Source: an uncultured Fibrobacterota bacterium (GTDB lineage Bacteria; Fibrobacterota; Chitinivibrionia; Chitinivibrionales; FEN-1185). Taken from it: a stretch of DNA of 64,000 nucleotides. How positions within the stretch are numbered: position 1 is the first letter of the stretch; each line of letters starts with the position of its first letter. This document shows, in pieces, positions 17,115 through 56,344 of this stretch. The stretch lies in assembly GCA_963753345.1 (NCBI GenBank), contig CAVWBU010000047.1, forward strand, positions 1 through 64,000, given 5' to 3'. Made by a program: the position numbers and the translations under genes. The notes under the pieces are model-generated. The model did not search any database. It saw nothing but the letters and a program-made list of their open reading frames with translations, and was not told the origin of the DNA.

Positions 17115-17289
17115 TTCCCTCTGCCCGCGCGTTAGGTGGACCGGAGGGTGAGCCAGAGCGAATTGCCGGCCGACCCCGGCTGAAAGCCATCGGGGCGGTC
17201 CGGCAACGAGGCGAACAGCCGAGCCCGCAGGGAGACCGGCCCCCTATGGAGTCGCACGGCCGTGCGACTCCATAGGGGGGAACGCCCAA
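17115..17289 (-). repeat. Structured repeat family A (Flavo-1-like), copy A1
   Basis: Head TTGGGCGTTCCC, tail CACCCTCCGGTCCACCTAACGCGC shared with the other copies. Confidence 0.85.
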
Positions 17290-17314
17290 ATTCTTCTGTT
17301 CAAGACCCGGATGG

Positions 17315-18742
17315 TCATGTCACACCGCGCCTGTTCATCGACAATGCGTACGAGAGAAAGTTTGCCGCGTTCATTGCAAGCCGCAGAAAGCTGTGCGGGG
17401 ACTCGCGCAGCATGCGAAGGTAGATCCGGCGCATGTACTTCCGTTGATAAAAGGCCCGGATGAATTCCCGGTTCATGCGTTCGAGCGTTTCGCGGGACCC
17501 GATCTCGCGGGGCACAAACACGAAATGCTCGCAATCCATCTTTGTCCAGTCGTCGTCGAACTCGCCGAGCGACCGGATGCCTGCCGTTATCGGCGCCCCC
17601 GGAAAGGGGGTGAACGCCGTGACGTTGGCGTCCTTGAGCGGGAGCGACAGGGCAAAGTCGCGCGTTGTGGCTATTGACGCTTCGCCTTCGCCGGGAAATC
17701 CCATCATAAAAAGGCCTTTCACGTACAGGCCGCCGCGCGTGAGCTTCTCGATGTCGCGGCGGACCACCTCGAGCGTGAGCCCGCTTTTGTGTCTGTCAAG
17801 TATCGCCTGGTCGCCGGATTCGATCCCGACGTTCACCATGAAACAGCCCGCCCGCTTGAGAAGGCGAACCAGCTCGTCGTCGATATGGCCGAGCCGCACG
17901 ATGCAGTTGAAGCTCACGGCCGGTTTGAGCTGCGAGAGCAGGCTGCACAACTTCACCACGCGCTCCCTGTTCAGGGTGAACAGGTCGTCGTAGAAGTTGA
18001 CGTGCCGTACGCCGAAGTCCTTTGCAAGATGCGAAACGAGCCCGGCCGTGTATTCGGGGGAATTGAACCGGAACCCCTGACCGAACACGGAACGGTCGCA
18101 GTAGGAGCATTGGTACACGCACCCGCGCGAGGAGATCACGTTCGCTCCCGGATGGCGCGGATACGAGAACAGCGGCATGAGATAGCGTTTTGGGAAGCCC
18201 GCCAGAAGATCGTAGGCCGGGTAGGGCAGGTCGTCCATAGCGCACAGCGCGGGCGCCGGGCCGTGCTCGACCACGGGGCCGTTGCGGAAATACAGGCCTT
18301 CGATCGTCGCGTGCGGCGCTCCGTTTGCCAGTTTACACATGGCGTACTCGCCTTCGCCCGCGATCACGAAGTCTATTTCCGGAACCCTTACAAGGATGCG
18401 CTCCCTTCCCCACGATACGTGGACCCCGCCGAACACAATGGCGGTTGTTTCCGCGCGCCGCTTGACGCGGCAGGCGACATCGCATGCGTCAAGAAACGCG
18501 GACGTGACGGCCGTGAACCCGACCATGTCCGGACGGGCGGACACGATGCGCTGCGCCCATTGTTCGTTGGAATATTCGATATCAAGCGCGGCATCAAACA
18601 CTATTACGCTATGGCCTGCGTTCCGTAACACCGCCGCGATCGAGGCAAGGCCAATGGGCGGCATGACGCAGGCGAGAGAATGAAGCCGCCGGGATTTCGC
18701 GTCGAGGGTAAGGCCGCGGGGGTTGAATAGAACAATTTTCAT
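17315..18742 (-). CDS. B12-binding radical SAM protein
   Basis: PPIGLASIAAVL and GGVH B12-binding domain; SRGCVYQCSYC CxxxCxxC; GIESGDQ. Confidence 0.9.
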   Translation of the reverse strand: MKIVLFNPRGLTLDAKSRRLHSLACVMPPIGLASIAAVLRNAGHSVIVFDAALDIEYSNEQWAQRIVSARPDMVGFTAVTSAFLDACDVACRVKRRAETTAIVFGGVHVSWGRERILVRVPEIDFVIAGEGEYAMCKLANGAPHATIEGLYFRNGPVVEHGPAPALCAMDDLPYPAYDLLAGFPKRYLMPLFSYPRHPGANVISSRGCVYQCSYCDRSVFGQGFRFNSPEYTAGLVSHLAKDFGVRHVNFYDDLFTLNRERVVKLCSLLSQLKPAVSFNCIVRLGHIDDELVRLLKRAGCFMVNVGIESGDQAILDRHKSGLTLEVVRRDIEKLTRGGLYVKGLFMMGFPGEGEASIATTRDFALSLPLKDANVTAFTPFPGAPITAGIRSLGEFDDDWTKMDCEHFVFVPREIGSRETLERMNREFIRAFYQRKYMRRIYLRMLRESPHSFLRLAMNAANFLSYALSMNRRGVT

Positions 18743-18760
18743 AATAATTAAGATCCTGGT

Positions 18761-18960
18761 GGGGGCACCGCTCCGCGGTTCCCCCTGGGCCCCGGCTTCC
18801 GCCGCACCCTGAGAATTTCAAAAGTTTTCTGAATTGGTGCGGCGGCGATCCAGGGCCACACCCCCTCCTGCGAAGGTGCGCGCCAAAGGCGCTCGACTTG
18901 CGCTCGCGCGTCGTCGCACCTTCGCAACGCAACCTCAGTGGAATGCCGCTTCGCGGCCAT
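18761..18960 (-). repeat. Structured repeat family C (3' half has B-like architecture)
   Basis: Start ATGGCCGCGAAGCGGCAT.CC....GGTTGCGTTGCGA shared with 52666; nested hairpins. Confidence 0.65.
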
Positions 18961-19075
18961 AAAGTACAAGTCAGACCAATTTCTGCGGCAAAGGCTACTC
19001 TAACAAGCCATCACCCTGCAAGGAGAATCATCAAGCCACAATTTGTCAAAAAGCATTTCCTCATAAGAAAGGATG

Positions 19076-19812: not shown

Positions 19813-21099
19813 ATGAAAAACACCATTAGAAATCTTGTCGTAGCGACGGGAATTCTGGTTTTATCTTTGCATTCCGCAAATGCGCAATGGGTTCAGGTTG
19901 ATTCCGGCCTCCCTGCGAATACGTCTGCCATGTGTCTCGCTGTGAGCGGTAGCAACATCTTTGCAGGGACTTGGGCCGCCGGTGTTTTTCTTTCCACAAA
20001 TAACGGAACAAGCTGGACTGCGGTCAATTCCGGCCTCACGAATACCAATGTAAACGTTCTTGCCGTGGGCGGCAGCAACATCTTTGCCGGCACTGATGGT
20101 GGTGGAATTTTCCTTTCCACCAATAGCGGAACAAGCTGGACTGCGGTCGATTCCAACCTCACGTATAATCCTGTCTGCGCTCTTGCCTTGAGCGGTAGCA
20201 ATATCTTTGCTGGCACTGGAGCCTTCATGGGCAATTTTGGCAGCATTTTCCTATCCACCAACAACGGCGCCAGTTGGACTGCGGTCAATTCCGGACTCAC
20301 AAATAGGGCTATTATGTCGTTTGCCTTGAGCGACAACAATATCTTTGCCGGTACTTTGGGTGGAGTTTTCCTTTCCAGCAATAACGGCACAAGCTGGACC
20401 GCGGTCAATTCCGGCCTCACAAATCCAATTGTCAAATGCATTACCGTGAGCGGTGGCAACCTCTATGCCGGGACTTGGGGCGGCGTCTTTCTATCCACCA
20501 ATAATGGTACAAGCTGGACCGCGGTCAATTCCGGCCTTACGGATACTAATGTATATGCTCTTGCAGTTAGTGGCAGCACTATCTTTGCCGGCACTTATGG
20601 TGGCGGTGTTTTTCTTTCGACCAATAACGGCGTAAGCTGGACTGCGGTTAATTCTGGCCTTACAAATGATACTGTTTTATGTCTTGCAGTGAGCAGCAAC
20701 AACCTTCTTGCAGGGACTAATAGTGGCGGTGTATGGTACAGGCCGCTTTCGGAAATGGTAGGGGTAATCATTCCTAGCACGCAGCAAAAGATATCAAAGC
20801 CGTATACCGGCGAATTCAAGATCAATGTCAACAAAACCGGTCTTTCCGCATTGTTGCCGCCAGCCTTGACTAATAGCATAATAACCGTTAGGTTGTATAA
20901 TGTTACAGGAAGGGAAATCTACTCTGCCAAGCATCAAACTGACAACGGCATGCTTAATATTCCAGTGAGCGGATTATCAGCAGGCAGGTATTTGATTTCG
21001 ATTACCGGCAGGAAAACAACGTTGTCTTCAGTCGTTTGTATTGACGAAATGACCATAGCAGAACCATGTTTGAACAAGAGAAACCTTTATCAGTCTTGA
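19813..21099 (+). CDS. Secreted 7-repeat beta-propeller protein with T9SS-like tail; true stop probably TGA near 21052
   Basis: Signal peptide; seven WTAVNSGL repeats; tail VRLYNVTGR...AGRYLISI; one extra base relative to the repeat copy at 22068-22132. Confidence 0.85.
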   Translation: MKNTIRNLVVATGILVLSLHSANAQWVQVDSGLPANTSAMCLAVSGSNIFAGTWAAGVFLSTNNGTSWTAVNSGLTNTNVNVLAVGGSNIFAGTDGGGIFLSTNSGTSWTAVDSNLTYNPVCALALSGSNIFAGTGAFMGNFGSIFLSTNNGASWTAVNSGLTNRAIMSFALSDNNIFAGTLGGVFLSSNNGTSWTAVNSGLTNPIVKCITVSGGNLYAGTWGGVFLSTNNGTSWTAVNSGLTDTNVYALAVSGSTIFAGTYGGGVFLSTNNGVSWTAVNSGLTNDTVLCLAVSSNNLLAGTNSGGVWYRPLSEMVGVIIPSTQQKISKPYTGEFKINVNKTGLSALLPPALTNSIITVRLYNVTGREIYSAKHQTDNGMLNIPVSGLSAGRYLISITGRKTTLSSVVCIDEMTIAEPCLNKRNLYQS

Positions 21100-22182: not shown

Positions 22183-22266
22183 GATTACTTTGTCGCTTCG
22201 TTTCTCGCAACGACACTTCTGCATTCTCAACGTTTCAACGCTTCAACTTTTCAACGTTTCAACTCT
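22183..22266 (+). repeat. REP-like unit plus tandem 8-mer (TTCAACnn) array
   Basis: GATTACTTTGTCGCTTCGTTTCTCGCAACGAC followed by about five TCAAC units at 8-nt spacing; similar module at 31296-31390. Confidence 0.65.
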
Positions 22267-22270
22267 CTCT

Positions 22271-26137: not shown

Positions 26138-26198
26138 TAAAATCCATTACAAAGAGTCGGGGGAGAAGAATAGCCTGTCTCAAAACCCAGTCAAGGAA

Positions 26199-26344
26199 CT
26201 GGGCGCCTGCCTTCGGCACCGGTTCTCCTTCCGGTCTCGGCCACGGCCTCGGGCTGCCACGGCCCAATGGCCCACAGGGCCGGGTCCGGGCAGCATCCCG
26301 CTCTAGCGGGACCTCCAGTCGCCCCTGGCGCGTGGCAGCGGGAA
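26199..26344 (+). repeat. Family A copy A2 (subtype II)
   Basis: CTGGGCGCC head, GGTTCTCCTTCCGGTCTCGGCC core, ACCTCCAGTCGCCCCTGGCGCG tail. Confidence 0.85.
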
Positions 26345-26448
26345 TCCTGCACAATCATCACATGCTTGACTAATTAGGACTTTTTCTCGTTGTATCATGA
26401 GCATTCAACCTGGCGCAAGAATTACAAATTGACAAAAAGAAATTGCTC

Positions 26449-26686
26449 CTGCCGCGCGCCAGGCAGGACCGGAGGGTGAGCTGAAGCGAATTGTCACTTC
26501 GTTCCCCAAGGTACGGTAATAGCGCTTCGCGCTTTGTTATTATGTCGCTTGCCTTGTGCCGGCCGACGACCCTTGGAAGCACCCGAAGGGGTGCCCCGGC
26601 CGCAGGCCATCGGGGCGGTCCGGCAACGAGGCGATTAGCCGAGCCCGGAGGGAGACCGACCCGAGCGCAGCGAGGGGAACGCCCAA
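26449..26686 (-). repeat. Family A copy A3 (long subtype I)
   Basis: Head/tail as A1, plus an ~90-nt insert shared with A9. Confidence 0.85.
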
Positions 26687-26756: not shown

Positions 26757-27641
26757 ATGGCAGAAAACGACACGGCAAACAACGACTCCGGCAATCAACC
26801 GAACCAGCCCGCAGGCGACGAAGCTTTGCAAGCCGCCCCGGAAACCGTGGCCCTCGAAATCACCGACGAGCAGGCGGCCGACAATGCCGCGGCCATGGAG
26901 GAAGAAAGCAGGGCCGAGGTTGCCGTTCCGGAAAACAATTCGCCCGACAATCCCCTTCGCGTGCTCGAGGCGCTGCTCTTCGCCTCCGACGAAATCCTCA
27001 CCACCGACAGGATAAAGGCCATTGTGCCCGGCATTCCGGACGGCCGCAAGATCCGGCAGATGGTTGACAAAATAAACGAGCATCTCGCCAAAGAGCGCCA
27101 CCCGTTCGAGGTCGTGGAGATCGGCGGCGGGTACCAGTTCCGCACGGTTTCGTACTATTATCCCTGGGTGGTGCAGCTCTTCAAGGAGAAGGCCGCGCGC
27201 AAGCTTTCCATCCAGTCGCTCGAATGCCTCGCGATCATCTCGTACAAGCAGCCCATCACCAAGGCCGAAATCGAATCCATACGCGGCGTGATGTCCGACG
27301 GCGCCATGAAGACGCTGCTCGAGAAACGGCTCGTGACCATTTCGGGCCGCAGCGACAAGGCCGGGCGTCCGTTGCTCTATGCGACCACCAAGGAATTTCT
27401 CGCCTACTTCGGCATCAACAAGATCGCCGACCTGCCGAGGATCGAGGAATTCGAGGCCATGGCAAAGGAGAAACTCGGCGACCTTACCGAAACGGAACTC
27501 ACGTTCATGGAGGCGGAAAAGACCGCGGCCGCGGATGTGCCACAGGCGCCCGCCGCGCCCGAAGAAACGGTGGCGCTTGACCAAAGCGAATTGCCGCAGG
27601 ACGCGCCGCAGGACGCGCCTCAGCCGCCCCAACCGTCATGA
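26757..27641 (+). CDS. scpB: SMC-Scp complex subunit ScpB
   Basis: LEALLFAS, GGGYQFRT, LECLAIISYKQPITKAEIESIRGV and GRPLLYATTKEFL; acidic N- and C-terminal extensions. Confidence 0.92.
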   Translation: MAENDTANNDSGNQPNQPAGDEALQAAPETVALEITDEQAADNAAAMEEESRAEVAVPENNSPDNPLRVLEALLFASDEILTTDRIKAIVPGIPDGRKIRQMVDKINEHLAKERHPFEVVEIGGGYQFRTVSYYYPWVVQLFKEKAARKLSIQSLECLAIISYKQPITKAEIESIRGVMSDGAMKTLLEKRLVTISGRSDKAGRPLLYATTKEFLAYFGINKIADLPRIEEFEAMAKEKLGDLTETELTFMEAEKTAAADVPQAPAAPEETVALDQSELPQDAPQDAPQPPQPS

Positions 27642-30316
27642 CGTCCCTCGAATTCCAGTCCCCTTCCGATTCGCTCACCCCGCTCATGCGCCAGTACAAC
27701 GCCATCAAGGCACAGAACCCGGACACCGTGCTGCTGTACCGGATGGGCGATTTCTACGAGATGTTCAACGAGGATGCGAAGATCGCGTCAAAGGTGCTCG
27801 GGCTCACCCTCACCGCGCGCAACCACGGCGGCGCCGAGGACGTGCCGCTGGCCGGATTTCCGCATCACGCCATCGACCGGTACGCAAACCGGCTGGTCAA
27901 GGCCGGATACAAGATCGCCATCTGCGAGCAGACCGAAGACCCCAAGAACGCCAAGGGCGTGGTGAAGCGCGACATCGTGGAGATCATCACGGCCGGTACG
28001 GCGACCGAAGACAACTTTATCGAAGAAAAGAGCAACAACTTTATCGTGGCCGTGGTCGCCGCGGCCGACGCCCTGGGGATCGCCATTTGCGATCTGTCAA
28101 CAGGGCTCTTTGAGGCCGAGGAAATTCCGAAGGACATGCTCGGCGAAGAGCTTGTCCGCATCGATCCCGCCGAGGTCCTGCTCGCCGGCGAGGAGGACAA
28201 CCCGCTTTGCGCGGATGTAAAGAATGCGCTGCCGCAGGCGCTCGTGTCGCGCTACGATGCCTGGAAATTCGAGCATGACATAGCCGACAAGTATCTGTGC
28301 GGCCATTTCGGGGTCGCCACGCTGTCGGGCTTCGGGTTTTGCAACCTTGGATGCGGCAGCGTGCGCGGCCGGGGGACTGCTTTCCTATCTTAAAGACCAG
28401 AAAAAGAACGATCTGCGCCACATCGTGGCGCTTTCTCCGCGCGCGCTGTCGTCGTTTGCCGACCTCGACCCGTCAACGATACGCAACCTCGAGCTGCTCC
28501 GCCCCATGCACGCCGACGACGAGGACGGCACGCTCCTGTGGGTGCTCGACAAGACGAGCACCGCCATGGGCGCGCGGCTGTTGCGCACATGGATCACCCA
28601 CCCGCTGCGGGACATCGGGGCGATTGCCGAGCGGCTCGACAGCGTGGCCTGGTTCAAGGCCGACGTGTTTGTCAAGGGCGAGGCGGAACTGTTCCTCAGG
28701 CAGATCGCCGACATCGAGCGCCTGATCGGCAGGGTCGCGTACGAGCGCGCCAATGCCCGCGACGTTTCCGCGCTCGCAAAGTCGCTGGCGGTGTTTCCCC
28801 GGATAGTCAAGCTCCTTTCCGCCGCGCCGAGCACATCGCTGGCCGAAGCGCGAATGTCTCTCGAAGGGTTCGAACCGCTCGTGGAATCGGTGCTTAAGAC
28901 CATCGTGGAGAGCCCGCCGCTGTCGATAAGGGAGGGCGGAATCATCAAGACCGGCGTGTCGGCCGAACTTGACGAAGTGAGAAGCGCAACCGTAAACGGC
29001 AAGAAGTGGATCGCCTCGCTCCAGGAATCCGAGAGCAGCCCGCACCGGCATTTCGTCGCTGCGCGTGGGATACAACCGCGTGTTCGGCTATTACATCGAG
29101 GTGTCGAAGGCGAACCTCGGCTCGGTGCCGGAGAATTACATCCGCAAGCAGACGCTTGTCAACGGGGAACGGTTCATCACGCCCGAGCTCAAGGACATGG
29201 AGGCCAAGATCCTGGGCGCCGACGAAAAATGCGCGGCGCTGGAATACGATCTGTTCGTGGCGCTGCGCTCCCGCATCGCAGGCGCAGTGCGCCGCGATCC
29301 AGAAGGCGGCGCGCTCAATCGCCCTGCTCGACGTGTACCTGTCGCTTGCAAAGGCCGCAACGGAATACGGCTACTGCCGGCCCGTGCTCGCGGAATCGGC
29401 CGATCTTGCGATACGAGAGGGCCGGCACCCGGTGGTGGAGCGCATGCTTTCGGCCGGCGACCAGTTCGTTCCGAACGACACCGACTGCCGCGCGGCCGAC
29501 TCGCAGATATTGCTCATCACCGGCCCCAACATGGCGGGAAAATCAACCTATTTGCGGCAGAACGCGCTTATCGCGCTCATGGCGCAGATGGGTTCGTTCG
29601 TGCCCGCTTCCTCGGCGCAGATCGGCGTTGTTGACAGATTCTACACGCGCGTGGGCGCGTCCGACCGGCTCGCGCGGGGACAAAGCACCTTCCTGGTGGA
29701 AATGATCGAGGTGGCCAACATCCTCAACAACGCCACCGACAAAAGCCTCGTGCTGCTCGACGAGGTGGGCCGCGGAACCTCCACGTTCGACGGCATCTCA
29801 ATCGCCTGGGCGGTCGCCGAGTACCTGCACGAGGCGCAGGGCAGAAGGCCGCGCACGTTTTTTGCCACGCATTACCACGAGCTCACCGAGCTGGCCCTTC
29901 TGTTCCCGCGAATCAAGAACCTGCACATCAAGGTGAAGGAATGGAACGACAAGATAATCTTTCTGCGCAAGATCGACCTTGGAAGCTGCGACCATTCCTA
30001 CGGCATCCAGGTCGCGCGGCTCGCCGGCGTGCCCAAGGCGGTGATCATCCGCGCAAAGGAGATTCTGGCGAACCTTGAGAACATGGAGTTCTCGCCCGAC
30101 CACAAGCCCATTCTCGCCCGACACCGGGAGGCCAAGAAAAGCGCGCAGCAGGAAGCAGAACGTTTCGATGTCGGCGTGCAGCTTAATATGATCGACGCAA
30201 TGAAGGGGGAAATCATACAGCAGCTTTTAGACTTGGATTTGAATCAGCTGACGCCGCTTGATGCGTTGAACTTGATAGCAGAATTGAAAAAGAGGGCGGG
30301 GGAAATACCGGAGTAG
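27638..30316 (+). CDS. mutS: DNA mismatch repair protein MutS; split by about three frameshifts
   Basis: [50 protein letters not shown] and ATHYHEL spread over ORFs 27638, 28347, 29065 and 29006. Confidence 0.93.
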
Positions 30317-30340: not shown

Positions 30341-30591
30341 TTGGGCGTTCCCCCGCTTCGCGGGGTCGGGCAATATTTCCGTCCTTCCTGTTGGACGGGT
30401 TACTTCCTTCCGGTCTCGGGCCTAAAAATAAATAAAGAGCTGGGCGTTTCCCTCGCTGCGCTCGGGCCGGTCTCCCTTCGGGCTCGGCTACTCGCCTCGT
30501 TACCGCCTGCCACGAGGGCCCTGCGGGCCGTGGTCAGGCGGTAATTCGCTCTAGCTCACCCTCCGGTCCACCTAACGCGCGGCAGAGGGAA
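30341..30591 (+). repeat. Family A truncated copy (30341-30422) plus full copy A4 (30440-30591)
   Basis: Two TGGGCGTT heads; the second continues to CTCACCCTCCGGTCCACCTAACGCGCGG. Confidence 0.85.
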
Positions 30592-30648: not shown

Positions 30649-31272
30649 TTACGGACATGTCTGCGTAGTTCGCCACGTACTGTCTCGACAAGTTTTTGTT
30701 ATCCATTGAGAAATGGAATCGGGGATATTGCAAAGCAAATTGAAATTGACGTTTATATAAGCAACACTACATTCCATAATGTTTGGTGAAATACTGGAAA
30801 TATAATTGGCATCGAAAAGCAGCCCAATAGCGCTTTTCAATTTGCCAATTTCATCCGGAATTCTTTGCAGCTTGTTAGAGTCAAGACGTATGGTACCCGC
30901 ATAGAAAATAGTATCCGTAAAAATTAGAGAATCGATATTGTTATTCTGTAACTCTAGAGTTGGGATAGATAAACTATTCAAGTACTTTGAAAATACAAAC
31001 TTAACTAATGATCGTGACTTTAGATTGATTTCAGCAACCTCGGAATTGGCCAAAACAATAACATCTCTCACCTTCACCGTATCTAACCCATTCTCATCAA
31101 GTATGGCCCGTACGGCTAATGAATCACCTTTGCTCAACATATTGATTGGTGGCCCGTCTGAAGGGTTGCTGCCGAACCAGAGGCCCTGAAGATCACAGCT
31201 CAGAAACAATGCGGACAAAACAAGAACCGCCCACGTCACGGAACAGACCGGTTTTCTCTTATGTAAGTTCAT
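30649..31272 (-). CDS. AT-rich leucine-rich-repeat lipoprotein
   Basis: LFLSC lipobox; DSLAVRAILDENGL; LRR units LELQNNNI, LDSNKLQRIPDEIGKL and VNFNLLC. Confidence 0.8.
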   Translation of the reverse strand: MNLHKRKPVCSVTWAVLVLSALFLSCDLQGLWFGSNPSDGPPINMLSKGDSLAVRAILDENGLDTVKVRDVIVLANSEVAEINLKSRSLVKFVFSKYLNSLSIPTLELQNNNIDSLIFTDTIFYAGTIRLDSNKLQRIPDEIGKLKSAIGLLFDANYISSISPNIMECSVAYINVNFNLLCNIPDSISQWITKTCRDSTWRTTQTCP

Positions 31273-31295: not shown

Positions 31296-31390
31296 GATTG
31301 CTTCGCTTCGCTCGCAATGACACTTGTTTTTCTTTGTCCAGTTTTCGGGTATTAACTTTTCAACTATTCAACGCTTCAACGTTTCAACTA
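31296..31390 (+). repeat. REP-like unit plus tandem 8-mer array
   Basis: AGATTGCTTCGCTTCGCTCGCAATGAC followed by TTCAAC units at 8-nt spacing. Confidence 0.65.
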
Positions 31391-31396
31391 TTCTCC

Positions 31397-31547
31397 GTGG
31401 GTGCCCCCGCAACACTGTTCGGTCTAGCAGCTACTTTGTCAAGGGGGCCACCCTAGAGGGGGTAGCGCAGGACCGGTCGCGCAATTCCAGCATTCTGTTT
31501 TGCAAAGTTGTGCGACCGGGCCGTAGCGAGGGGGAGCCTTCCTCCAC
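31397..31547 (+). repeat. Structured repeat family B, copy B1
   Basis: GGGTGCCCCC...GGGGGCCACCC hairpin, GAGGGGGTAGCG.AGGACCGGTCGCGC...GCGACCGGGCCG.AGCGAGGGGGA. Confidence 0.85.
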
Positions 31548-31569
31548 ATGAAAATCTTTTATTATATCT

Positions 31570-39241: not shown

Positions 39242-39266
39242 ACGAACAATTAATATTCTTAAAACG

Positions 39267-41065: not shown

Positions 41066-41107
41066 CATCAGCCGAAATTCAGGCGTTTATAGGCGAACTC
41101 CATCGCC
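41058..41107 (-). ncRNA. Fluoride riboswitch (crcB motif) aptamer upstream of eno
   Basis: GGCGATGGAGTTCGCC-TATAAACGCC...GGCTGATGACTCCTAC matches the crcB-motif consensus, including the GGAG/CTCC pseudoknot. Confidence 0.93.
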
Positions 41108-41114
41108 AGAAATC

Positions 41115-41143
41115 AAAATACATCAAAAAGAAATATAATCCAA
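41115..41143 (-). promoter_or_regulatory. Putative sigma70 promoter of the fluoride operon
   Basis: TTGGAT-N17-TATTTT, ending 7 nt before the first G of the aptamer. Confidence 0.55.
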
Positions 41144-44682: not shown

Positions 44683-44708
44683 TTTCAATATTTCTATTAA
44701 TAATTAAG

Positions 44709-44888
44709 CTGGGCGTTCCCCCTATTGTAAAGGCGCAGAATTCTGCGCCTTTACAATAGGGGGCGGTTCTCCTTCCGGTCTCGGCCTCCGGCCTCGGGCC
44801 GCCTGCCACGAGGGCCCTGCGGGCCGTGGTCAGGCGGCATCCCGCTTTGGCGGGACCTCCAGTCGCCCCTAACGCGCGGCAGAGGAAA
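44709..44888 (+). repeat. Family A copy A5
   Basis: Head CTGGGCGTTCCC; tail ACCTCCAGTCGCCCCTAACGCGCGG. Confidence 0.85.
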
Positions 44889-44980
44889 TCCTGTTCCGTC
44901 AAGATCACAATCTTGCGCCTGGCTCTCGAAATAGATAACTTCACAATTCATCATCTGCTTTTCCCTACCAACCACCCTCC

Positions 44981-45131
44981 GTGGGTGCCCCCACACAGGT
45001 GTATGGTTCTGCAACTACTTTGTCAAGGGGGCTACCCTGGAGGGGGTAGCGGAGGCCTGGCCGCGCAGTTCCATACTTCTTTTTTGTGAAGCTGCGCGGC
45101 CAAGCCGTAGCGAGGGGGATACTTCCCCCCC
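44981..45131 (+). repeat. Family B copy B2
   Basis: Same modules as B1 with covarying stem CTGGCCGCGC/GCGCGGCCAA. Confidence 0.85.
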
Positions 45132-45180
45132 TTATACCTCTTTGTATTTTCGGCTTCATTTCTCATTGTATTTTCAAGCC

Positions 45181-46998
45181 ATGGCCTCAAAAGAACTTAT
45201 AGAATCATTAGACCGCTTCCCCGAAAGCCCGGGTGTCTATTTAATGAAAGACGCATCCGGCGGGCTGCTTTACATAGGCAAGGCAATAAACCTCAAATCA
45301 CGAGTCAAATCTTATTTCCTTGACACGCACGAAGACCGGCCGCAGATTCCCTTCATGCTGGCACGGCTCGACCACGTGGACTGGATCGCCACACGCAGCG
45401 AGACCGAGGCGCTCATCCTCGAGGCGAACCTGATACGCAAGCATAAGCCGAAGTTCAACATAGACCTCAAGGACGACAAGCATTACCCCTATCTCAAGAT
45501 AACCGTGCAGGAGCCGTTTCCGCGGCTCCTGGTGGTGCGCAGGGTGGAAACCGACGGTAGCCGCTACTTCGGGCCGTACACCGATGCACGGGCCATGCGC
45601 AGGCTCATTCACTTTGCAAAACGGATTTTTCAGATACGCGACTGCAACCGCGACCTTCCGCTCAAGAAGCCTTCACGGCCGTGCGTGAATTTCGGGATCG
45701 GCCGCTGCAGCGGCGCATGCGCCGCCAAGATTTCGCAGGACGAATACCGCGCCAACGTGGACATGCTGGTCCGCTTTCTTATGGGCCGCAGAAAGGACGT
45801 AGTGCGCGAGCTTGAAGCGAGAATGGAGGCAGCCGCCGCCGCGACGCGGTTCGAGGAGGCGGCGCTCATGCGCGACCAGATCCGCCTCATTGGCGACGCA
45901 TCGCAGGCCCAGAAGGTCGACCTTGCCGCACTCGACGAGGACTGCGACGTTTTCGGCGTTTTCAAAGGCGACCGCTCGCTGTGCCTCGCGGCGCTTTGCG
46001 TGCGCGAGGGCCTGCTCATGTCGGCGCGAAGGTTCGCGTTCGACAAGGCATCGTGGGAGGCGCAGGGCGCGGGCATGGAAACGCTGCTGATGCAGTTCTA
46101 CCTTGACGCAGGAGAACAGCCTCCGCCCGAAGTGCTCGTGTCGCAGGAGGCGGGCATCGATCCCGCGCTTCTGGAGCAGGCTTTTCTGTCACAGTTCGGC
46201 CGCGCCGTGAACGTCGCGGTGCCGCAGAAGGGCGCGAAGCGCGGCCTTGCCGATATGGCCGTGAAAAACGCTCGCCTGTACCTGATGCAGAAGCTTCCAC
46301 CGAACGCGCTCGACGACCTTACCGAGCTGCAGACCATTCTCCACCTTCCCAGGTTCCCGCATGTCATCGAGGCGTTCGACATATCGAACATGGGCGAGAC
46401 CAACGCGGTCGCAGGCATGGTGCGGTTCGTGGAAGGCGAGGCGGACAAATCCGGATACCGGCGGTACAAAATAAAGACCGTAACCGGCCAGAACGACTTC
46501 GCCATGCTCATGGAGGCGGTAACGCGCAGACTGTCGCGCCAAGATGAAGAAAGCAGGCAGTTTGCCGACCTTTATCTTATCGACGGCGGGCTCGGTCAAC
46601 TGCACGCTGCGATGGAAGCAATGGGGAAATTTGAAAACCCGCCGATGGCGATTGCGCTTGCCAAAAGGGAGGAGCTCATCTATTCTCCCTATGGCAAGGA
46701 ACCGGTTCGCCTTCCGTCAACGCACCCGGTGCGCAAGTTCCTGGAACGCATCCGCGACGAGGTGCACCGGTTTGCCATCGCCTATCATCGTACCCTGCGC
46801 GGTCACCGGCTGGCCGTGTCTGCACTGCAGTCGGTGCCGGGCATGGGCAAGAAACGTGTTGTGCTGCTGTTGCGCCATTTCGGTTCGCTGTCGGCCGCGC
46901 GCAAGGCGAGCGTGGAGGAGATTGCGAAAGTGAAGGGCATTCCGGCAACGCTGGCGCAGGAGATTAAGAAGTTTTTGGAAGACATGGCAGCGGATTGA
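45181..46998 (+). CDS. uvrC: Excinuclease ABC subunit C
   Basis: PGVYLM...YIGKAINLKSRVKSYF, FDISN, IDGGLGQL, RIRDEVHRFA and C-terminal HhH. Confidence 0.95.
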   Translation: MASKELIESLDRFPESPGVYLMKDASGGLLYIGKAINLKSRVKSYFLDTHEDRPQIPFMLARLDHVDWIATRSETEALILEANLIRKHKPKFNIDLKDDKHYPYLKITVQEPFPRLLVVRRVETDGSRYFGPYTDARAMRRLIHFAKRIFQIRDCNRDLPLKKPSRPCVNFGIGRCSGACAAKISQDEYRANVDMLVRFLMGRRKDVVRELEARMEAAAAATRFEEAALMRDQIRLIGDASQAQKVDLAALDEDCDVFGVFKGDRSLCLAALCVREGLLMSARRFAFDKASWEAQGAGMETLLMQFYLDAGEQPPPEVLVSQEAGIDPALLEQAFLSQFGRAVNVAVPQKGAKRGLADMAVKNARLYLMQKLPPNALDDLTELQTILHLPRFPHVIEAFDISNMGETNAVAGMVRFVEGEADKSGYRRYKIKTVTGQNDFAMLMEAVTRRLSRQDEESRQFADLYLIDGGLGQLHAAMEAMGKFENPPMAIALAKREELIYSPYGKEPVRLPSTHPVRKFLERIRDEVHRFAIAYHRTLRGHRLAVSALQSVPGMGKKRVVLLLRHFGSLSAARKASVEEIAKVKGIPATLAQEIKKFLEDMAAD

Positions 46999-47090: not shown

Positions 47091-47792
47091 ATGAAACCGA
47101 AGGAGTCAACCACAAAGGCCGTGGGGTTTTTGCCCATCACCCTGCCAAAGCCGTCGGACTGGCACGGAAAATCGGTCTACGCTGCCCTCAAGGTAAGAAG
47201 GACAACACGCAAGATCAGTTCAAAGGCATTTTCTTTACAGATGCTTTCCAACCTGCTCTGGGCGGCAGATGGCGTTAACCGCAAATCCGGCCCCTTCGGG
47301 CTTCCCGGCAGAACCGCGGCCTCGGCAAGCAACTCCCGGGAAATAGAGGTGTACGCAGCAATGGAGAAAGGCGTTTACCTTTACGAGCCCGCCGGCCATC
47401 GCCTTGTTCCGGTTGCTCAAGGCGACTTTCGCCCCATGGCGATCGGCTACGGCCAGAAGACCTGGGGATCGAACGCGGCCATACGCCTTATCTATGTTGC
47501 GGACATTGACAAATTCAAAAAGTCCGGGTTTGACGAACCCAGGCTGCACGAGCCGGAAGGCCAAAAGGCCTATTACTACACCGACACCGGCCTTGTTGCG
47601 GGAAACGTGTACCTGTTCGCCGCCTCGCAGGGCCTTGCGGCGTGGTTTCACAACTGCGACAGGGAGATGGTGTCAAAGGTATTAAAATTACCGGAAAGCA
47701 AGAGGCCGCTGTTCGGGCAGACCATTGGATATGCGGGAAAACAATTATATGAAAGAGATGGGCGTTCCCCTCGCTATTCGTTACTGGAATAA
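47091..47792 (+). CDS. Nitroreductase (SagB/ThcOx-like) family protein, paralog of 10..612
   Basis: ALKVRRTTR, LSNLLWAADGVNR, RTAASASN, GNVYLFAASQGL and FGQTIGY. Confidence 0.85.
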   Translation: MKPKESTTKAVGFLPITLPKPSDWHGKSVYAALKVRRTTRKISSKAFSLQMLSNLLWAADGVNRKSGPFGLPGRTAASASNSREIEVYAAMEKGVYLYEPAGHRLVPVAQGDFRPMAIGYGQKTWGSNAAIRLIYVADIDKFKKSGFDEPRLHEPEGQKAYYYTDTGLVAGNVYLFAASQGLAAWFHNCDREMVSKVLKLPESKRPLFGQTIGYAGKQLYERDGRSPRYSLLE

Positions 47793-47941
47793 AAACACTT
47801 GGGCGCCCCGCCGCTTTGCGGCGGCGGCCCTCCCTCCGGGCTCGGCTGTTCGCCTCGTTGCCGGATGGCCCTATGCCTGTCGGCCGGGTCGGCCGGCAAC
47901 GCGCTCTTGCGCGCCCTACGGTCCTGCCTGGCGCGCGGCAA
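47759..47941 (+). repeat. Family A head fragment (47759-47777) plus full copy A6 (47799-47941)
   Basis: TGGGCGTTCCCCTCGCT fragment, then TTGGGCGCCCC...GGCTCGGCTGTTCGCCTCGTTGCCGG...CCTGGCGCGCGG. Confidence 0.8.
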
Positions 47942-48060
47942 CAGAAGTGTATTCAGTCAAGATTAAATCTTGCGCCAGCCTGAATTCTCGAGCGAAGAAG
48001 TAAAATTCCTTTGTGTGGTTTTTGACTTCTTAACTGCTTGACTCTTCAACTCTATTTCTA

Positions 48061-48208
48061 GGTGCCCCCGCAGCCGAGGTTTCTTTCTTGCAAACCAACT
48101 TTCATGGGGGCTACCCACGAGGAGGTAGCGGAGGACCGGACGCGCTTCTGGAATGTTGATTTGTAGAGCGGCGCGACCGGGCCGAAGCGAGGGGGATACT
48201 TCCCCCAC
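48061..48208 (+). repeat. Family B copy B3
   Basis: First hairpin nearly identical to B4 (TTTCTTTCTTGCAAACCAACTTTC loop). Confidence 0.85.
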
Positions 48209-48227
48209 ATGAACATCTTTAATTCAT

Positions 48228-50223: not shown

Positions 50224-51489
50224 TTACTTCCCCGACCGCTCCTTGTCGGAAAAAATCTTAATAATCCCGTATTCGCCGTCGTATCCCGCCTTCACCGAGA
50301 TTTCGCCGCTCCTCACCCGGCGTATCCCCTCGGCAAGAAGCGATCCGCCTGCGTTTTCGATTATGTCAAGGGGAGCATCCATCAGGATGGAAAACTCGCT
50401 GCCCGCATTTCCGACAAGTTTCCAGTACAGGGTGTCTGCCTTTTGTGACCCCGGCCCGACTCCCAAACAGTCCCCGATGATTTCCGAAAGCGGTATCATG
50501 CTGTGATACGGCCGCCAGCGCTTTCCCTTTCCACCCTCGGGCCGGTCGGCAAGCTGCTCCACCCGCGCCATGACGCCCACGGTCACCGGCTTGCCGCACA
50601 CCGGGCAAAGGCCCTTGTTCTTTATGGTTTCCCTCGGGTGCAGACGCGTTTCGCATTTCCTGTGGCCGTCAAAGTGGTACTTGCCCTCCTCGGGGAAGAA
50701 TTCCACGGTTCCCGAAAGACCCCTGTCGCCGGGATTTCGCATTGCGTCAAGAATGCCGCTGTACGAGAGGTCCGTCTCAAAGATGTTTGCTTCCCGTCCC
50801 AGCTTACTCGGCGAATGCGCGTCCGAATTCGACACGAGCACGAACGGGTCGAGCGAGGAGAGCCGCCAGTTCATGGCCGGATCCGAAGATAGGCCCGTTT
50901 CCAGGGCATAGATATATTTCGTCAAGTCGCCGAAGCATTCGTCGATCGAATCGAACCCGCTCTTGGACCCGAGCACCGAGAACCACGGCGTCCACACGTG
51001 GGCGGGAATGAGGAACCCGTCGGGATGGCACGAGAGCAGGATGTCGAGCAAATCGCGAGAGTCAAGACCAAGGATGGGCCTTCCGTCGGAGCGGATGTTG
51101 CCGATGCTACCGAGCTTCGCCGCGAGCTTCGCCGCGGAGGCGAAATCGGGAAGGTACACAACGTTGTGTACCTTCCGCACCTTGCCGTCGCGTTTGTAAA
51201 TGCTGGAAATCTCGCTGGAAAGAATGAACCGCACCTCCGCGTTGCACGAAGCCGGAACTTGCGCCGCGAGCGGCGCGCGGAATTCCTCTTTAAGTTCAAA
51301 CAAGCCGTTTCCACACGGAGAAAGTTTCTCGGACAGTTCCTTGGACCAGCCCGGGTGGATGCAGTCGCCAGTGGCCACCACCGAAATTCCCTTGATCTGC
51401 GCCCACAGCCACAGGTGTTCCAGGTCGAGCTCGGGGCTTGTCGCGCGGGAATATTTAGAATGTATGTGGAGGTCGGCGTAATAATGCAT
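50224..51489 (-). CDS. Endonuclease Q family (PHP-domain) protein
   Basis: ADLHIHSKYSRATS, SNSDAHSPSKLGREAN and PEEGKYHFDGHRKC...CPVCGKPVTVGV. Confidence 0.88.
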   Translation of the reverse strand: MHYYADLHIHSKYSRATSPELDLEHLWLWAQIKGISVVATGDCIHPGWSKELSEKLSPCGNGLFELKEEFRAPLAAQVPASCNAEVRFILSSEISSIYKRDGKVRKVHNVVYLPDFASAAKLAAKLGSIGNIRSDGRPILGLDSRDLLDILLSCHPDGFLIPAHVWTPWFSVLGSKSGFDSIDECFGDLTKYIYALETGLSSDPAMNWRLSSLDPFVLVSNSDAHSPSKLGREANIFETDLSYSGILDAMRNPGDRGLSGTVEFFPEEGKYHFDGHRKCETRLHPRETIKNKGLCPVCGKPVTVGVMARVEQLADRPEGGKGKRWRPYHSMIPLSEIIGDCLGVGPGSQKADTLYWKLVGNAGSEFSILMDAPLDIIENAGGSLLAEGIRRVRSGEISVKAGYDGEYGIIKIFSDKERSGK

Positions 51490-51535
51490 GGAGAAAATAT
51501 AGATAATCCATACAATACTATAACACATAGTTATT

Positions 51536-51685
51536 GGGGGGGGAGGTCTCCCCCTCGCTCCGGCCCGGTCGCGCGTTCACAGACCAAGATTCCGAGTCTG
51601 CGCGACCGATCCTGCGCTACCCCCTCGTGGGTAGCCCCCGAGAAAGTTGGTTTGCAAGAAAGAAACTTCGCCTGCGGGGGCACCG
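51536..51685 (-). repeat. Family B copy B4
   Basis: Reverse complement matches B1/B3. Confidence 0.85.
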
Positions 51686-51798
51686 AGAAATAGAGTTGAA
51701 TGTTGACAGTTATCGGTTGACAGCAAATCAAATGTCTGTTGGATTATCCGGGATTCCGGATGGCGGAAAAATCATCTTGACCAATGATATTTCTTATA

Positions 51799-51958
51799 CC
51801 GCGCGTTAGGGGCGACTGGAGGCCGCGTTGGAACGCGGTGCCGCCCGGACCCGCCGCTACTGCGGCATAGGGCCGTGGCGGCCCGAGGGCAAGGCCCGAG
51901 ACCGTAAGGAGAACCGACCCGACCCCGAGCGGAGTCGAGGGGGGAGGGGAACGCCCAA
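51799..51958 (-). repeat. Family A copy A7
   Basis: GCGCGTTAGGGGCGACTGGAGG...GGAGAACCG...GGAACGCCCAA on the + strand. Confidence 0.85.
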
Positions 51959-52790: not shown

Positions 52791-52825
52791 GCAAATTCTT
52801 ATATTTTTGCTACCACAATCACCTC

Positions 52826-52944
52826 GTGGGTGCCCCCCAACCGGGATATCTTTCTCGCAAATCAACTTACTTGGGGGCCACCCAGGAGAGGGGAGTGCCG
52901 AGGACCGCACGGCGGGCAGAGGCCGGGGGAGATACCTCTCCCCC
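52826..52944 (+). repeat. Family B copy B5 (variant)
   Basis: GTGGGTGCCCCC...GGGGGCCACCC and terminal GGGGGAGA-TACC-TCTCCCCC hairpin. Confidence 0.75.
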
Positions 52945-53002
52945 GACAAATCCAAAGAAAACTCTTTATTCTCTCCCTCATGCAAAACTATTTTGATACC
53001 CG

Positions 53003-53551: not shown

Positions 53552-53552
53552 C

Positions 53553-54479: not shown

Positions 54480-55815
54480 GAAACCCGACGGCCGCGCCGT
54501 CTACCTTCCCGGGCTGGAGGCCCACCCCGCGTGCATCCTCATCAAGAACGGCCGCGTGATCGACCCCGCAAACCGCGTCGACGCCGAGCTCAACGTGGGC
54601 GTGGAAAGCGGCGTTATCCGCTTTGTCAACAAGGAGATCCCGTCGGGGTTCCGGCCCCAGGAGGAGATCGATGCCGAAGGCATGTGGGTGGTGCCCGGCC
54701 TTATGGACATGCACGTGCACCTGCGCGAGCCCGGCCGCGAGGACAAGGAGACCATAGAGACCGGCACGCAGGCCGCGGCGGCCGGCGGCTTTACCGCGGT
54801 GGCCTGCATGCCCAACACCAACCCGGTGCTCGACGAGGAATCGAAAATCCGCTACGTGGTCCAGCGCGGGCAGCACTGCCCGTGCCGCATCTTTCCCGTG
54901 GGCTCCATCACCAAGGGGCTGCTCGGCGAGGAACTGTCGCCGTTCGGCGAGATGGTGCGCGCCGGCGCCCGCGCGGTGAGCGACGACGGCAAGAGCGTGC
55001 GCAAGTCCAACATGATGAAGAGCGCGCTCAACTACTCAAAATCGTTCAGGATACCGGTGATCTGCCACTGCGAGGATTGCGACCTCTCCGCCGGCGGCCA
55101 TATGAACGAGGGCCTTGTGTCAACGCGCCTGGGCCTGCGCGGCATCCCGGCCATCGCCGAGGATATTATTGTCGCGCGCGACATCATGCTCGCGGAATAC
55201 ACCGGCGCGCGCATCCATATTGCGCACGTGTCAACCGCCGGCAGCGTGCGCGCCATCCGCGAGGCGAAGAAGCGCGGGGTGCACGTCACCTGCGAGACCT
55301 GCCCGCACTACTTTACGCTGTGCGACGGCGACATCGGCGACTACGACACCAACCGCAAGATGAACCCGCCCCTGCGCACCGCCGCGGACCGCGCCGAGAT
55401 CGTGGCCGCGCTCGCCGACGGCACCATCGACGTCATCGCGTCGGACCACGCGCCGCATGTTTCCGAGGAAAAGGACGTTGAATTCGACGCGGCCAGCTTC
55501 GGCGTGATCGGCCTGGAAACGTCGCTGGGCATCGCGCTCACCTATCTCGTTGACAAAGACATCCTCATGCCCGCCGATCTCGTGGAGAAGATGAGCCTTG
55601 TGCCCAACCGCATTCTCGGGCTCGACGGCGGCACACTTTCTCCCGGCAAACGCGCCGACATCACCATCATCGACCCGAAGACAACATGGAAGGTCGACCC
55701 CTCCACCTTCTTCTCCAAGTCCCGCAACACGCCCTTCGAAGGGTTCGACCTCAAGGGCTATGCCCACGCGACGATTCTCGGCGGGGCCATTGTGTATTTG
55801 AGAAATACAAAATAG
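54472..55815 (+). CDS. pyrC: Dihydroorotase
   Basis: DMHVHLREPG, MPNTNP, KMNPPLR and ASDHAPH. Confidence 0.95.
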   Translation: MHKKPDGRAVYLPGLEAHPACILIKNGRVIDPANRVDAELNVGVESGVIRFVNKEIPSGFRPQEEIDAEGMWVVPGLMDMHVHLREPGREDKETIETGTQAAAAGGFTAVACMPNTNPVLDEESKIRYVVQRGQHCPCRIFPVGSITKGLLGEELSPFGEMVRAGARAVSDDGKSVRKSNMMKSALNYSKSFRIPVICHCEDCDLSAGGHMNEGLVSTRLGLRGIPAIAEDIIVARDIMLAEYTGARIHIAHVSTAGSVRAIREAKKRGVHVTCETCPHYFTLCDGDIGDYDTNRKMNPPLRTAADRAEIVAALADGTIDVIASDHAPHVSEEKDVEFDAASFGVIGLETSLGIALTYLVDKDILMPADLVEKMSLVPNRILGLDGGTLSPGKRADITIIDPKTTWKVDPSTFFSKSRNTPFEGFDLKGYAHATILGGAIVYLRNTK

Positions 55816-55825
55816 AATTCAGGAG

Positions 55826-55972
55826 TTGGGCGCCCCGCTGCTTCGCAGCGGCGGCCGTCCTTCCGGTCTCGGCCTCCGGCCTCGGGCTGCCACGGCCCTA
55901 TGCCGCGGTAGCGGCCGGGTCCGGGCAGCATCCCGCTTTGGCGGGACCTCCAGTCCTGCCTGGCGCGTGGCA
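55826..55972 (+). repeat. Family A copy A8 (subtype II)
   Basis: Closely matches A2; begins about 10 nt after the pyrC stop. Confidence 0.85.
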
Positions 55973-56083
55973 TCAGGAACATTCCACAATCAACATATGC
56001 CTTACTAATAAGAATTCACTTGCACGGTTCCATAACAATTCCGGATGGCGCTAGAATTAGTTCTTGACAGAAGATATTTCTGT

Positions 56084-56344
56084 TGCCGCGCGTTAGGTGG
56101 ACTGGAGGGTGAGCTGAAGCGAATTGTCACTGCGTTCCCCAAGGTATGGAAATAGCGCTTCGCGCTTCATTATTGTGTCACTTGCCTTGTGCCGCCTGAC
56201 GACCCTTGGAAGCACCCGAAGGGGTGTTACGGCCCGAAGGGCCCTTGTGGCAGGCGGCAACGAGGCCGACAGGCCGAGCCCGGAAGGAGACCGACCCCAT
56301 GTAAAGCCGCACGGTGGTGCGGCTTTACATGGGGGAACGCCCAA
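56084..56344 (-). repeat. Family A copy A9 (long subtype I)
   Basis: Shares the insert GTTCCCCAAGGTA...GACCCTTGGAAGCACCCGAAGGGGTG with A3. Confidence 0.85.

Follow-up and report, generated by a model that had tools for sequence, protein, structure and literature searches.

Large, branched and covarying intergenic repeats in uncultivated Fibrobacterota, possibly of the REP, BIME and MITE kind

The closest described counterparts of the repeats analysed here are the REP/BIME and REPIN-RAYT systems, the BOX-type repeats and the MITEs of other bacteria. BIMEs combine REP with other motifs in a mosaic manner, BOX-type repeats consist of modules that can be exchanged, and MITEs such as ERIC/IRU and Correia affect the flanking mRNA depending on their orientation. 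We have analysed a 64,000-nt stretch of an uncultured Fibrobacterota bacterium (GenBank assembly GCA_963753345.1, contig CAVWBU010000047.1, positions 1 to 64,000; hereafter the window), in which a structured repeat of 137–259 nt, family A, occurs within about 40 kb as nine full and two truncated copies. Its composite units recall the mosaics of BIMEs and its exchanged modules recall BOX-type repeats. The reading that we favour, with roughly even confidence, is that family A consists of old interspersed structured DNA repeats, functionally of the REP/BIME/MITE kind, but much larger and multi-branched.

The likeness to REP/BIME and REPIN-RAYT sequences concerns their dense intergenic palindromic repeats, present at a density similar to that found here (nine copies in 40 kb), the coexistence of singletons and inverted doublets, the absence of target-site duplications and of long terminal inverted repeats, and long persistence in a lineage (PMC3116915, PMC3337134). 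However, the REP unit is a hairpin or imperfect palindrome of 20–40 nt, whereas a family A copy holds six helices in a multi-branched arrangement. The BOX, RUP and SPRITE repeats of Streptococcus pneumoniae are interspersed intergenic sequences with predicted stable folds (PMC3049150), but they belong to another phylum, and the modules of family A are hairpin tips on a conserved branched scaffold with long-range covarying stems. With MITEs (ERIC/IRU, Correia/NEMIS) family A shares a length of 100–250 nt, the form of an overall imperfect hairpin and a location at gene ends; with non-autonomous elements of the IS200/IS605 type it shares structured ends lacking terminal inverted repeats and target-site duplications; and integron attC sites are likewise folded, variable in sequence, conserved in structure and able to sit right after stop codons. 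Family A works like the REP/BIME/REPIN, BOX and MITE repeats but fails the defining features tested for each known system, namely unit size, near-identical populations, target-site duplications, terminal inverted repeats and attC core sites.

Each unit of family A opens with the head TTGGGCGYYCC, followed by a hairpin that varies between copies. Then come the invariant middle TCCYTNCGGKCTCGG..CCTCG and a further two or three hairpins, and the unit closes with the tail CCTCCRGTC..CCTRRCGCGYGG. When run on the 64 kb at E ≤ 1, the covariance model R1 matched nine copies and nothing else (72–123 bits, E 1e-12 to 1e-23), although its boundaries called the copy at 47799 from 47758 and the copy at 56086 only as 56187–56344. 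The tail pattern and the first form of the middle pattern each gave eight matches in the window against none in 100 shuffles. The initial annotation, made from the letters alone, had counted nine full copies and two truncated heads, and this count was borne out, the truncated pieces being read directly from the sequence; a search of the window for further fragments turned up only the shorter of these two. Equally exact was its division of the closing stems into five GCGTT/AACGC, three GCGCC/GGCGC and one GCGTT/GGCGC. The copies and their associated segments, each given on its own strand, are as follows.

17125–17289 (−): family A, type I (GCGTT/AACGC), R1 123.4 bits; a 40-nt perfect palindrome without spacer (17240–17279) forms the first hairpin; begins 25 nt past the stop of a B12-binding radical-SAM gene
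26199–26335 (+): family A, type II (GCGCC/GGCGC), left half of an inverted doublet, R1 89.9 bits; begins 61 nt past the stop of a CoA_binding_3 sugar-transferase gene
26336–26451 (no strand): 116-nt spacer between the tails of the first inverted doublet, recognised by sequence similarity to other doublet spacers
26452–26686 (−): family A hybrid with a type I head, a type II tail and two T.G wobbles, R1 85.9 bits; extra modules of 27 nt and about 73 nt beside the 3' strand of hairpin P5; antisense, upstream of scpB
30341–30422 (+): truncated copy with head, first hairpin, inserted hairpin, middle motif and half of P4, from sequence reading; begins 24 nt past the mutS stop
30440–30582 (+): family A, type I, short form of 143 nt, R1 111.6 bits
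44709–44879 (+): family A, type I, first part of an A-linker-B composite, R1 109.4 bits; a 46-nt perfect palindrome without spacer (44718–44763) forms the first hairpin; begins 26 nt past the stop of a class A penicillin-binding protein gene
44880–44979 (+): composite linker with the box GTCAAG..CTTGCGCC at 44898–44919, from sequence comparison
47759–47775 (+): truncated type I head, 17 nt that form the last codons of a nitroreductase open reading frame (ORF), from sequence reading
47799–47938 (+): family A, type II, first part of a composite, R1 110.7 bits; begins 6 nt past the nitroreductase stop
51799–51958 (−): family A, type I, first part of a minus-strand composite, R1 83.4 bits
55826–55970 (+): family A, type II, left half of an inverted doublet, R1 88.3 bits; begins 10 nt past the dihydroorotase stop
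55971–56085 (no strand): 115-nt spacer of the second inverted doublet, from sequence similarity
56086–56344 (−): family A, type I, with extra modules of 27 nt and about 73 nt, R1 72.1 bits for 56187–56344; an 18+18 palindrome at 56295–56334; begins 13 nt past the stop of a WG-repeat gene

Relatives were collected by scanning species-representative genomes with the middle pattern, which gave at least 90 stretches, and all external counts hold among the matches listed. R1 scored 51–131 bits at 38 places in 34 of the 90 listed loci, from at least four metagenome-assembled genomes (MAGs). These places represent 36 distinct external copies, two places being the same DNA in loci L030 and L031, so that the full set comprises 45 copies, nine in the window and at least 36 outside it. 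The remaining 56 loci, mostly from G+C-rich Actinomycetota, Acidobacteriota and others, reached at best 18.6–20.8 bits and were discarded as chance pattern matches. The carriers among the matches listed are given below.

DATFYJ01, Chitinivibrionales: 17 loci
CAVSQB01, Fibrobacterota: 9 loci
PLWQ01, Fibrobacteres: 4 loci
JACRCV01, labelled Deltaproteobacteria: 4 loci

A core of about 35 nt (GGTCG..TCCYTNCGGKCTCGG..CCTCG) is nearly invariant across these four MAGs, one of which bears another phylum label, and the JACRCV01 copies add a third compensated closing stem, GCGTG/CACGC. Judged by its contents, the window is probably Fibrobacterota, as it has the repeat in common with these MAGs, encodes a Por_Secre_tail protein and has a GH2 protein whose two compared parts are 64% and 50% identical to a PLWQ01 locus. 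Every window copy finds its best partner within the window at an identity of 0.84–0.90, and against the DATFYJ01 copies the values are 0.82–0.91; the JACRCV01 copies alone resemble one another closely (0.88–0.96). Several genomes share the subtypes and the long palindromes, and likewise the 27-nt module and a large insertion. Since the window copies are no closer to each other than to those of DATFYJ01 and such variants are held in common, family A appears to be old within Fibrobacterota, with its fold kept copy by copy and no recent bursts visible; no two window copies are close enough for recent transposition to be seen. A blastn search with the copy 30440–30582 gave no match in plasmid and phage collections, and we found no description of such repeats in Fibrobacterota in the open-access literature searched. 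Two further observations concern the upstream side of the copies. A partial head lies 24–100 nt upstream of the full copy in three of the four JACRCV01 copies (L061, L082, L059) and in two of the nine window copies (30341 and 47759), and a conserved word GGGG(A/G)AG..AGCCTGTCTCAAAAC precedes by 15–25 nt four copies, three of them type II, in three genomes (26165–26190(+), L012, L052 and L073).

Read on the pyrimidine-rich strand, the fold of family A comprises six helices.

P1: closing stem of 5 bp, GCGYY/RRCGC
P2: variable hairpin, in three forms
P3: long-range stem GGT/ACC, 3x3 loop CTC/TCC, CY/RG, 3x3 loop TNC/TCC, GGK/MCC
P4: GGC(C)..(G)GCC
P5: long hairpin
P6: hairpin

The short form of P2 is CCCTCGC-TNC-GCTCGGG with a tandem TC/CT mismatch, and the other forms are a long hairpin of 40–46 nt and, in type II, a CCGCCGC form. 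The 3x3 loops of P3 contain only pyrimidines on one strand and are purine loops of the GGA/GAG type on the other. Four of the hairpins are local, and their tips are exchanged between copies. The long stem broken by CTC/TCC internal loops, the swapping of apical hairpins and the two subtypes, all proposed when the repeat was first noticed, can be seen in the copies.

Covariation was tested on 36 of the 45 copies over 27 pairs of P1, P2, P4, P5 and P6. Copies with large insertions (26452−, 56086−, L026, L030 1611–1870, L045 and L081) were dropped from the alignment, as were L059 (its head then still misplaced), L054 (interrupted by the end of a contig) and L052 1263–1396 (a later find). In this alignment 89.6% of the cells pair, against 30–46% when the partners are slid by one to three columns; both sides change in 18 of the 27 pairs, in 113 cells in all; and none of 500 shuffles reached the observed covariation score, although one measure was weaker, the number of further pair types being reached by 64 of the 500. 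P3 was left out of this column-wise test and was counted from sequence anchors in 43 copies, because the MAFFT and model alignments shift its 3' arm by one base between the subtypes. Its long-range pair is C-G in 27 copies, T-A in 13 and C.A in three, and in copies with a three-base loop the neighbouring G/T position tracks its partner (G-C at least 22, T-A 3, T.G 3). The P1 dinucleotides in the same 43 copies are TT/AA in 30, CC/GG in eight, TG/CA in three and the wobble version TT/GG in one; the remaining copy, L059, had its head misread, and there the model alignment gives GGGTG/CACCC, another compensated change. The compensatory base changes claimed from the window copies are present in this alignment, and with the external copies added the fold of family A is well supported.

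The composition of the helices and loops bears on the level at which this fold acts. Structured RNA families usually tolerate far more G.U than we count here, the helix cells on the pyrimidine-rich strand comprising 836 Watson-Crick pairs, 24 G.T and nine A.C. The 14 long P2 hairpins hold 245 Watson-Crick pairs, one G.T and seven mismatches, though their sequences differ between copies, and five of them, spread over four genomes, are spacer-less perfect palindromes of 40–46 nt; the three longest perfect palindromes of the window are all family A first hairpins. Every conserved mismatch or loop consists of pyrimidines on one strand, and the other strand carries tandem CGAG/CGAG G.A motifs (19 vs 0). 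Likewise, C-GNA-G triloops number 63 on the purine-rich strand vs 4, a count in which strand composition is a confounder and some spurious local hairpins are included. Both the tandem G.A motifs and the GNA triloops are reported as unusually stable in DNA in PMC3201870, PMC10085684 and PMC13037366. The abundance of c-GNA-g loops remarked on in the initial annotation thus holds with that reservation, and its hint at folding of single-stranded DNA gains support from the near-pure Watson-Crick stems, the spacer-less palindromes and the triloops and tandem G.A motifs of the purine strand. As to which strand folds, the evidence is split: G.T vs A.C favours the pyrimidine strand, the chemistry of loops and mismatches favours the purine strand, and the folding energies are similar.

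Gene context was judged by a codon-usage score trained on the Pfam-supported genes of the window and then by Pfam on the loci; an approach based on the longest ORF was dropped as unreliable in G+C-rich DNA. It had been noted that most window copies start about 10–60 nt after a co-oriented stop. This stands for seven of the nine, which begin 6–61 nt past a Pfam-supported stop (the copy at 30440 being counted as 24 nt to the truncated head at 30341), but not for 51799−, which sits 184 nt past an ORF without Pfam hit, nor for the antisense copy 26452−. As a property of the whole family, co-orientation with the upstream gene did not survive. Among the external heads, 12 lie beside a co-oriented stop that is Pfam-supported and one beside a stop supported by coding score only, 16 lie beside the start of an opposite-strand gene and seven are not judgeable; over all 45 copies this makes 19 Pfam-supported co-oriented stops (plus two unsupported) vs 17 opposite-strand starts, and there is accordingly no orientation rule for family A. 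In some loci (L045, L018) the head comes within about 5–36 nt of the opposite-strand start codon. The head side is always near a gene end and the tail side keeps at least 55 nt, a distance that fits an element whose conserved DNA runs past its tail. Of 29 regions classified by the ORFs on either side, 11 are convergent and 3 divergent, the first class being over-represented and the second rare.

An orthologous convergent gene pair, encoding a solute-binding protein (SBP) and a SpoIIE protein, could be compared between L077 (DATFYJ01) and L023 (CAVSQB01), whose proteins share 194 of 218 residues (89%) for SBP and 155 of 209 (74%) for SpoIIE. The spacer of each genome holds one family A copy, on opposite strands and at different positions, and the inverted core was the sole similarity found by BLAST of the two spacers; a family B copy (a second structured repeat, described below) is readable beside SpoIIE in both. 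Another apparent shared site, at a phosphoglycerate-mutase gene in L018 and L070, was rejected, the proteins being unrelated. Because there is no orientation rule, both orientations occur at an orthologous site, the stems are near-pure Watson-Crick, perfect palindromes are present and the purine strand carries its own motifs, our conclusion is that DNA is the level at which the fold is important, on one strand or the other.

The repeats further occur in higher-order arrangements. Four of the nine window copies form two inverted doublets, each of a type II(+) and a type I(−) copy with a spacer of 115–116 nt, the other copies being single; L073 carries the same doublet, and L052 has a convergent pair. 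The doublet spacers are themselves alike, L073 943–1250 matching window positions 26172–26474 at 72% and 55827–56107 at 76%. Three A-linker-B composites of 411–426 nt, with all parts on the same strand and linkers of 100–118 nt, lie at 44709–45134, 47799–48209 and 51958–51533, and the same composite is present in DATFYJ01 and CAVSQB01 loci. Under a strict pattern, family B lies downstream of seven of the 38 copies with at least 300 nt of downstream DNA, and the linker box GTCAA..TGCGCC occurs in 15 of 43 copies. A 27-nt hairpin module, CACCCCTTCGGGTGCTTCCAAGGGTCG, is inserted inside P5 in three copies and inside the 5' arm in two others (26580–26593 and 56213–56226 in the window; L030, L045 and L026). 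It always precedes TC and ends in GGGTCG, resembling the upstream flank, and may be a nested mini-element or the product of a template switch.

Family B is a structured repeat of 122–156 nt with the order GGTGCCCCC..GGGGGCYACCC..GGGGGTAGC..GAGGGGGA-loop-TCCCCC. Alignment of nine copies (five in the window plus L015, L024, L045 and L060) gave a predicted consensus fold with little covariation, and family B had no Rfam match. The window copies are listed here.

31396–31548 (+): family B
44980–45134 (+): family B, part of the 44709 composite, ends at the uvrC start
48057–48209 (+): family B, part of the 47799 composite; its end lies about 19 nt short of the stop of the convergent uvrD, or about 4 nt if measured from the conserved flank
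51533–51688 (−): family B, part of the 51799 composite, directly upstream of gene 50224–51528(−)
52825–52946 (+): family B

Counted with a short conserved flank, the 3' end of family B lies at most about 50 nt from a gene boundary, which in the window is a co-oriented start in three of the five copies (uvrC, gene 50224–51528 and a pyrR-like gene) and a convergent stop in two. Beside this family we observed arrays with an 8-nt period, (TTCAACNN)n, at 22226–22263(+), alone at the end of a radical-SAM gene, and at 31359–31388(+), just upstream of a family B copy; looser TTCAACNN arrays precede the B copies at about 44940 and about 48020, and loci of DATFYJ01 and CAVSQB01 contain the same arrays. 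Another word, TTGCTGAGC(G/C)(G/T)GTGCGGC, repeated in intergenic DNA of CAVSQB01 and PLWQ01 loci (L023, reverse strand, about 1250–1330; L032; L002), suggests that these genomes hold more repeat families.

The initial annotation had proposed a non-autonomous mobile element or a non-coding RNA family. The structured modular repeat is there and fits a repeat or mobile element better than a single-copy RNA gene. The comparisons show that position and orientation turn over between related genomes, that modules are exchanged and form composite units, and that copies spread or rearrange at the DNA level and gather in intergenic spaces singly, as inverted doublets or as A-B composites; mobility itself is something that we infer. 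In the reading that we favour, copies would propagate as a non-autonomous element or by recombination. The fold, on single-stranded or extruded DNA, would be needed for recognition by a factor supplied in trans. Our best guess for this factor is an HUH/RAYT-like single-strand transposase or another structure-specific recombinase, the former being favoured because the ends are structured and neither target-site duplications nor long terminal inverted repeats are present. Effects at the RNA level on neighbouring genes, such as 3'-end protection or insulation, would then be secondary and set by the chance orientation of the copy.

A number of observations weigh against this reading. Transposase, HUH, integrase and reverse-transcriptase domains were found in none of 264 ORFs (184 in the window, 80 in the loci), and the expectation that copies might flank an HUH/RAYT or reverse-transcriptase gene was disappointed in the same set. 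The ORFs scanned include no RAYT (Y1 HUH) gene, which in REPIN-RAYT systems is flanked by the repeats, and no Y1 transposase (TnpA), the partner of IS200/IS605-type elements; the latter have a fixed target of 4–5 nt just 5' of their left end, and the left flank of family A is purine-rich (AARAR) with no fixed word. No target-site duplication was detected, the mean longest shared flank word being 4.12 within vs 3.95 between copies (permutation p=0.13, 43 copies). Instead of long terminal inverted repeats there is a terminal complementarity of 5–8 bp, made of the conserved GCGYY/RRCGC plus up to three wobble or extra pairs in the window's genome; MITEs, in contrast, have terminal inverted repeats of at least 10 bp, and no related insertion sequence was found. 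No empty site was seen, and the attempt to find one through a GH2 gene was unusable: this comparison was dropped as unsafe in orthology, the window protein being 50–51% identical to L030 and L065 (C-terminal) and 64% to L065 (N-terminal). The opposite orientations at the SBP/SpoIIE site could reflect a local inversion rather than an insertion. The window holds no near-identical pair of copies, unlike REPIN populations, which cluster around a master sequence, and locus-by-locus selection or gene conversion could instead maintain the fold; family A has no sequence relation to REP or REPIN. On both strands, minimum-energy folds have only a modest advantage over dinucleotide shuffles (z −1.8 to −3.8), which is why the case for structure rests on covariation. 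Finally, the excess of G.T over A.C lies on the pyrimidine-rich strand, which is sense in most window copies, and eight of the nine window copies are sense to the upstream gene; both facts lean towards RNA.

The latter points are taken up by an explanation in which family A is an RNA-level module, whose fold in the neighbouring mRNA would protect the 3' end, terminate or insulate, with family B as a 5' leader and A-B as a portable intergenic cassette. It would account for the seven or eight of nine window copies that begin 6–184 nt past a co-oriented stop, for convergent genes that bear convergent copies (55826/56086 and L052), for the three of five window B copies ending right at a co-oriented start codon, for the ratio of G.T to A.C on the sense strand and for the excess of convergent over divergent regions. 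Yet orientation over all copies is nearly balanced, the orthologous SBP/SpoIIE site carries both orientations, no T-run follows the element, G.U is very scarce, the spacer-less perfect palindromes have no RNA-level rationale and two of the five window B copies face the stop of a convergent gene, and we consider this explanation unlikely, though worth keeping in view. Membership in, or close kinship with, Flavo-1, or with another multi-copy non-coding RNA gene family, seems highly improbable. The resemblance to Flavo-1 had been put forward from recall and no Rfam search backed it: with Rfam 15 (4227 families including RF01705), no family matched any family A copy in the window at gathering scores or at E ≤ 10, nor did laxer filters at E ≤ 10 yield a match at the elements in the pieces 55780–56400 and 44690–45200, which hold three A copies and one B copy. 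The other results in the window were two fluoride riboswitches and hairpin-only chance matches to STnc40 and STnc320. No promoter or terminator signals frame the copies, and the non-coding RNA gene half of the original proposal is not supported. Flavo-1 is listed as a Bacteroidetes motif in Table 1 of PMC2864571 and, according to PMC9723704, its matches in Flavobacterium psychrophilum lie sense or antisense to transcribed regions, with many outside them. Both families are multi-copy structured motifs of the FCB group indifferent to transcript orientation, but the family A carriers among the matches listed are three Fibrobacterota MAGs and one labelled Deltaproteobacteria. Flavo-1 may nonetheless be a thing of similar kind, though membership of RF01705 fails.

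Other explanations keep the fold in DNA. BIME-like sites of chromosome architecture, at which a nucleoid protein, gyrase or similar would bind extruded or double-stranded palindromes and which would spread by recombination only, agree with the near-invariance of the core across four MAGs of two phylum labels, with copies that are old and diverged but still keep their fold, and with a behaviour independent of orientation. But the palindrome arms covary and have no fixed half-site, so that intrastrand pairing is favoured over a dimeric reader; moreover, no candidate protein is known, and truncated copies, nested modules and composites are left unexplained, which makes this account distinctly improbable. 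There is a very slim chance that a site-specific recombinase uses the copies as folded single-strand sites, in the manner of integron attC. Their position just past stop codons in the window, a fold resembling that of single-stranded DNA and the ACCTAAC of the type I tail, which fits RYYYAAC, speak for such sites, but the head reads GTTCCCC and not GTTRRRY, and type II lacks both AAC and GTT; in addition, family A is larger than attC and branched, its flanking genes are housekeeping genes on both strands without cassette arrays, and the ORFs scanned include no integrase. A bolder form of the reading that we favour would make A and B the two ends of a self-propagating intergenic cassette common to Fibrobacterota and at least one other lineage. 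Its purine strand would fold as a single-stranded DNA zipper of G.A/G.G loops and GNA triloops, serving as the substrate of a structure-specific transposase or recombinase, and its palindromes would be regenerated by hairpin-templated copying or repair and not by selection, so that it would be a REP-like system whose recognition fold is ten times the size of any on record; this we regard as a speculation with a low probability of being correct.

Were family A indeed of the REP/BIME/MITE kind, the genomes of uncultivated Fibrobacterota would be densely populated with very large, branched repeats under structural constraint, with about one quarter of the intergenic regions of the stretch holding a copy and with a core conserved at least as well as the neighbouring protein genes and recurring in a differently labelled phylum. 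The repeats would then offer a way towards a new mobilising enzyme. They are also a plain cause of fragmented assemblies, the most similar MAG being in contigs of 2–15 kb, and they call for caution in the discovery of RNA motifs, since strong covariation here goes with DNA-level signatures and not with a dedicated RNA gene.

Several neighbouring features were recorded in the window. The mutS gene at 27638–30316(+) is in three pieces (frame 0 to 28390, frame 1 at 28284–29702 and frame 0 from 28973), that is, with two frameshifts, which represent either a pseudogene or assembly indels; if the loss is real, diverged repeats could recombine more readily for want of mismatch repair. A gene of low G+C content at 30649–31272(−) (about 40% vs about 58% for the window), which has a copy of family A on one side and a copy of family B on the other, encodes 207 aa with a signal-peptide-like start and leucine-rich-repeat-like text, and has no Pfam hit. 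The two fluoride riboswitches lie at 39171–39249(−) (50.5 bits) and 41052–41116(−) (59.4 bits), one upstream of a Na+/H+ exchanger gene and the other of an enolase gene. A PIN-domain ORF at 7115–7534(−) (E 1.1e-6) is possibly the toxin of a toxin-antitoxin pair. The window encodes a Por_Secre_tail protein according to Pfam, and two BNR/Sortilin-type repeat proteins, at 7782–9035(−) and 19813–21099(+), have internal repeats of about 120 nt that are 72–80% complementary between the genes, making them inverted paralogues 11 kb apart, one with a type IX secretion system (T9SS) sorting tail.

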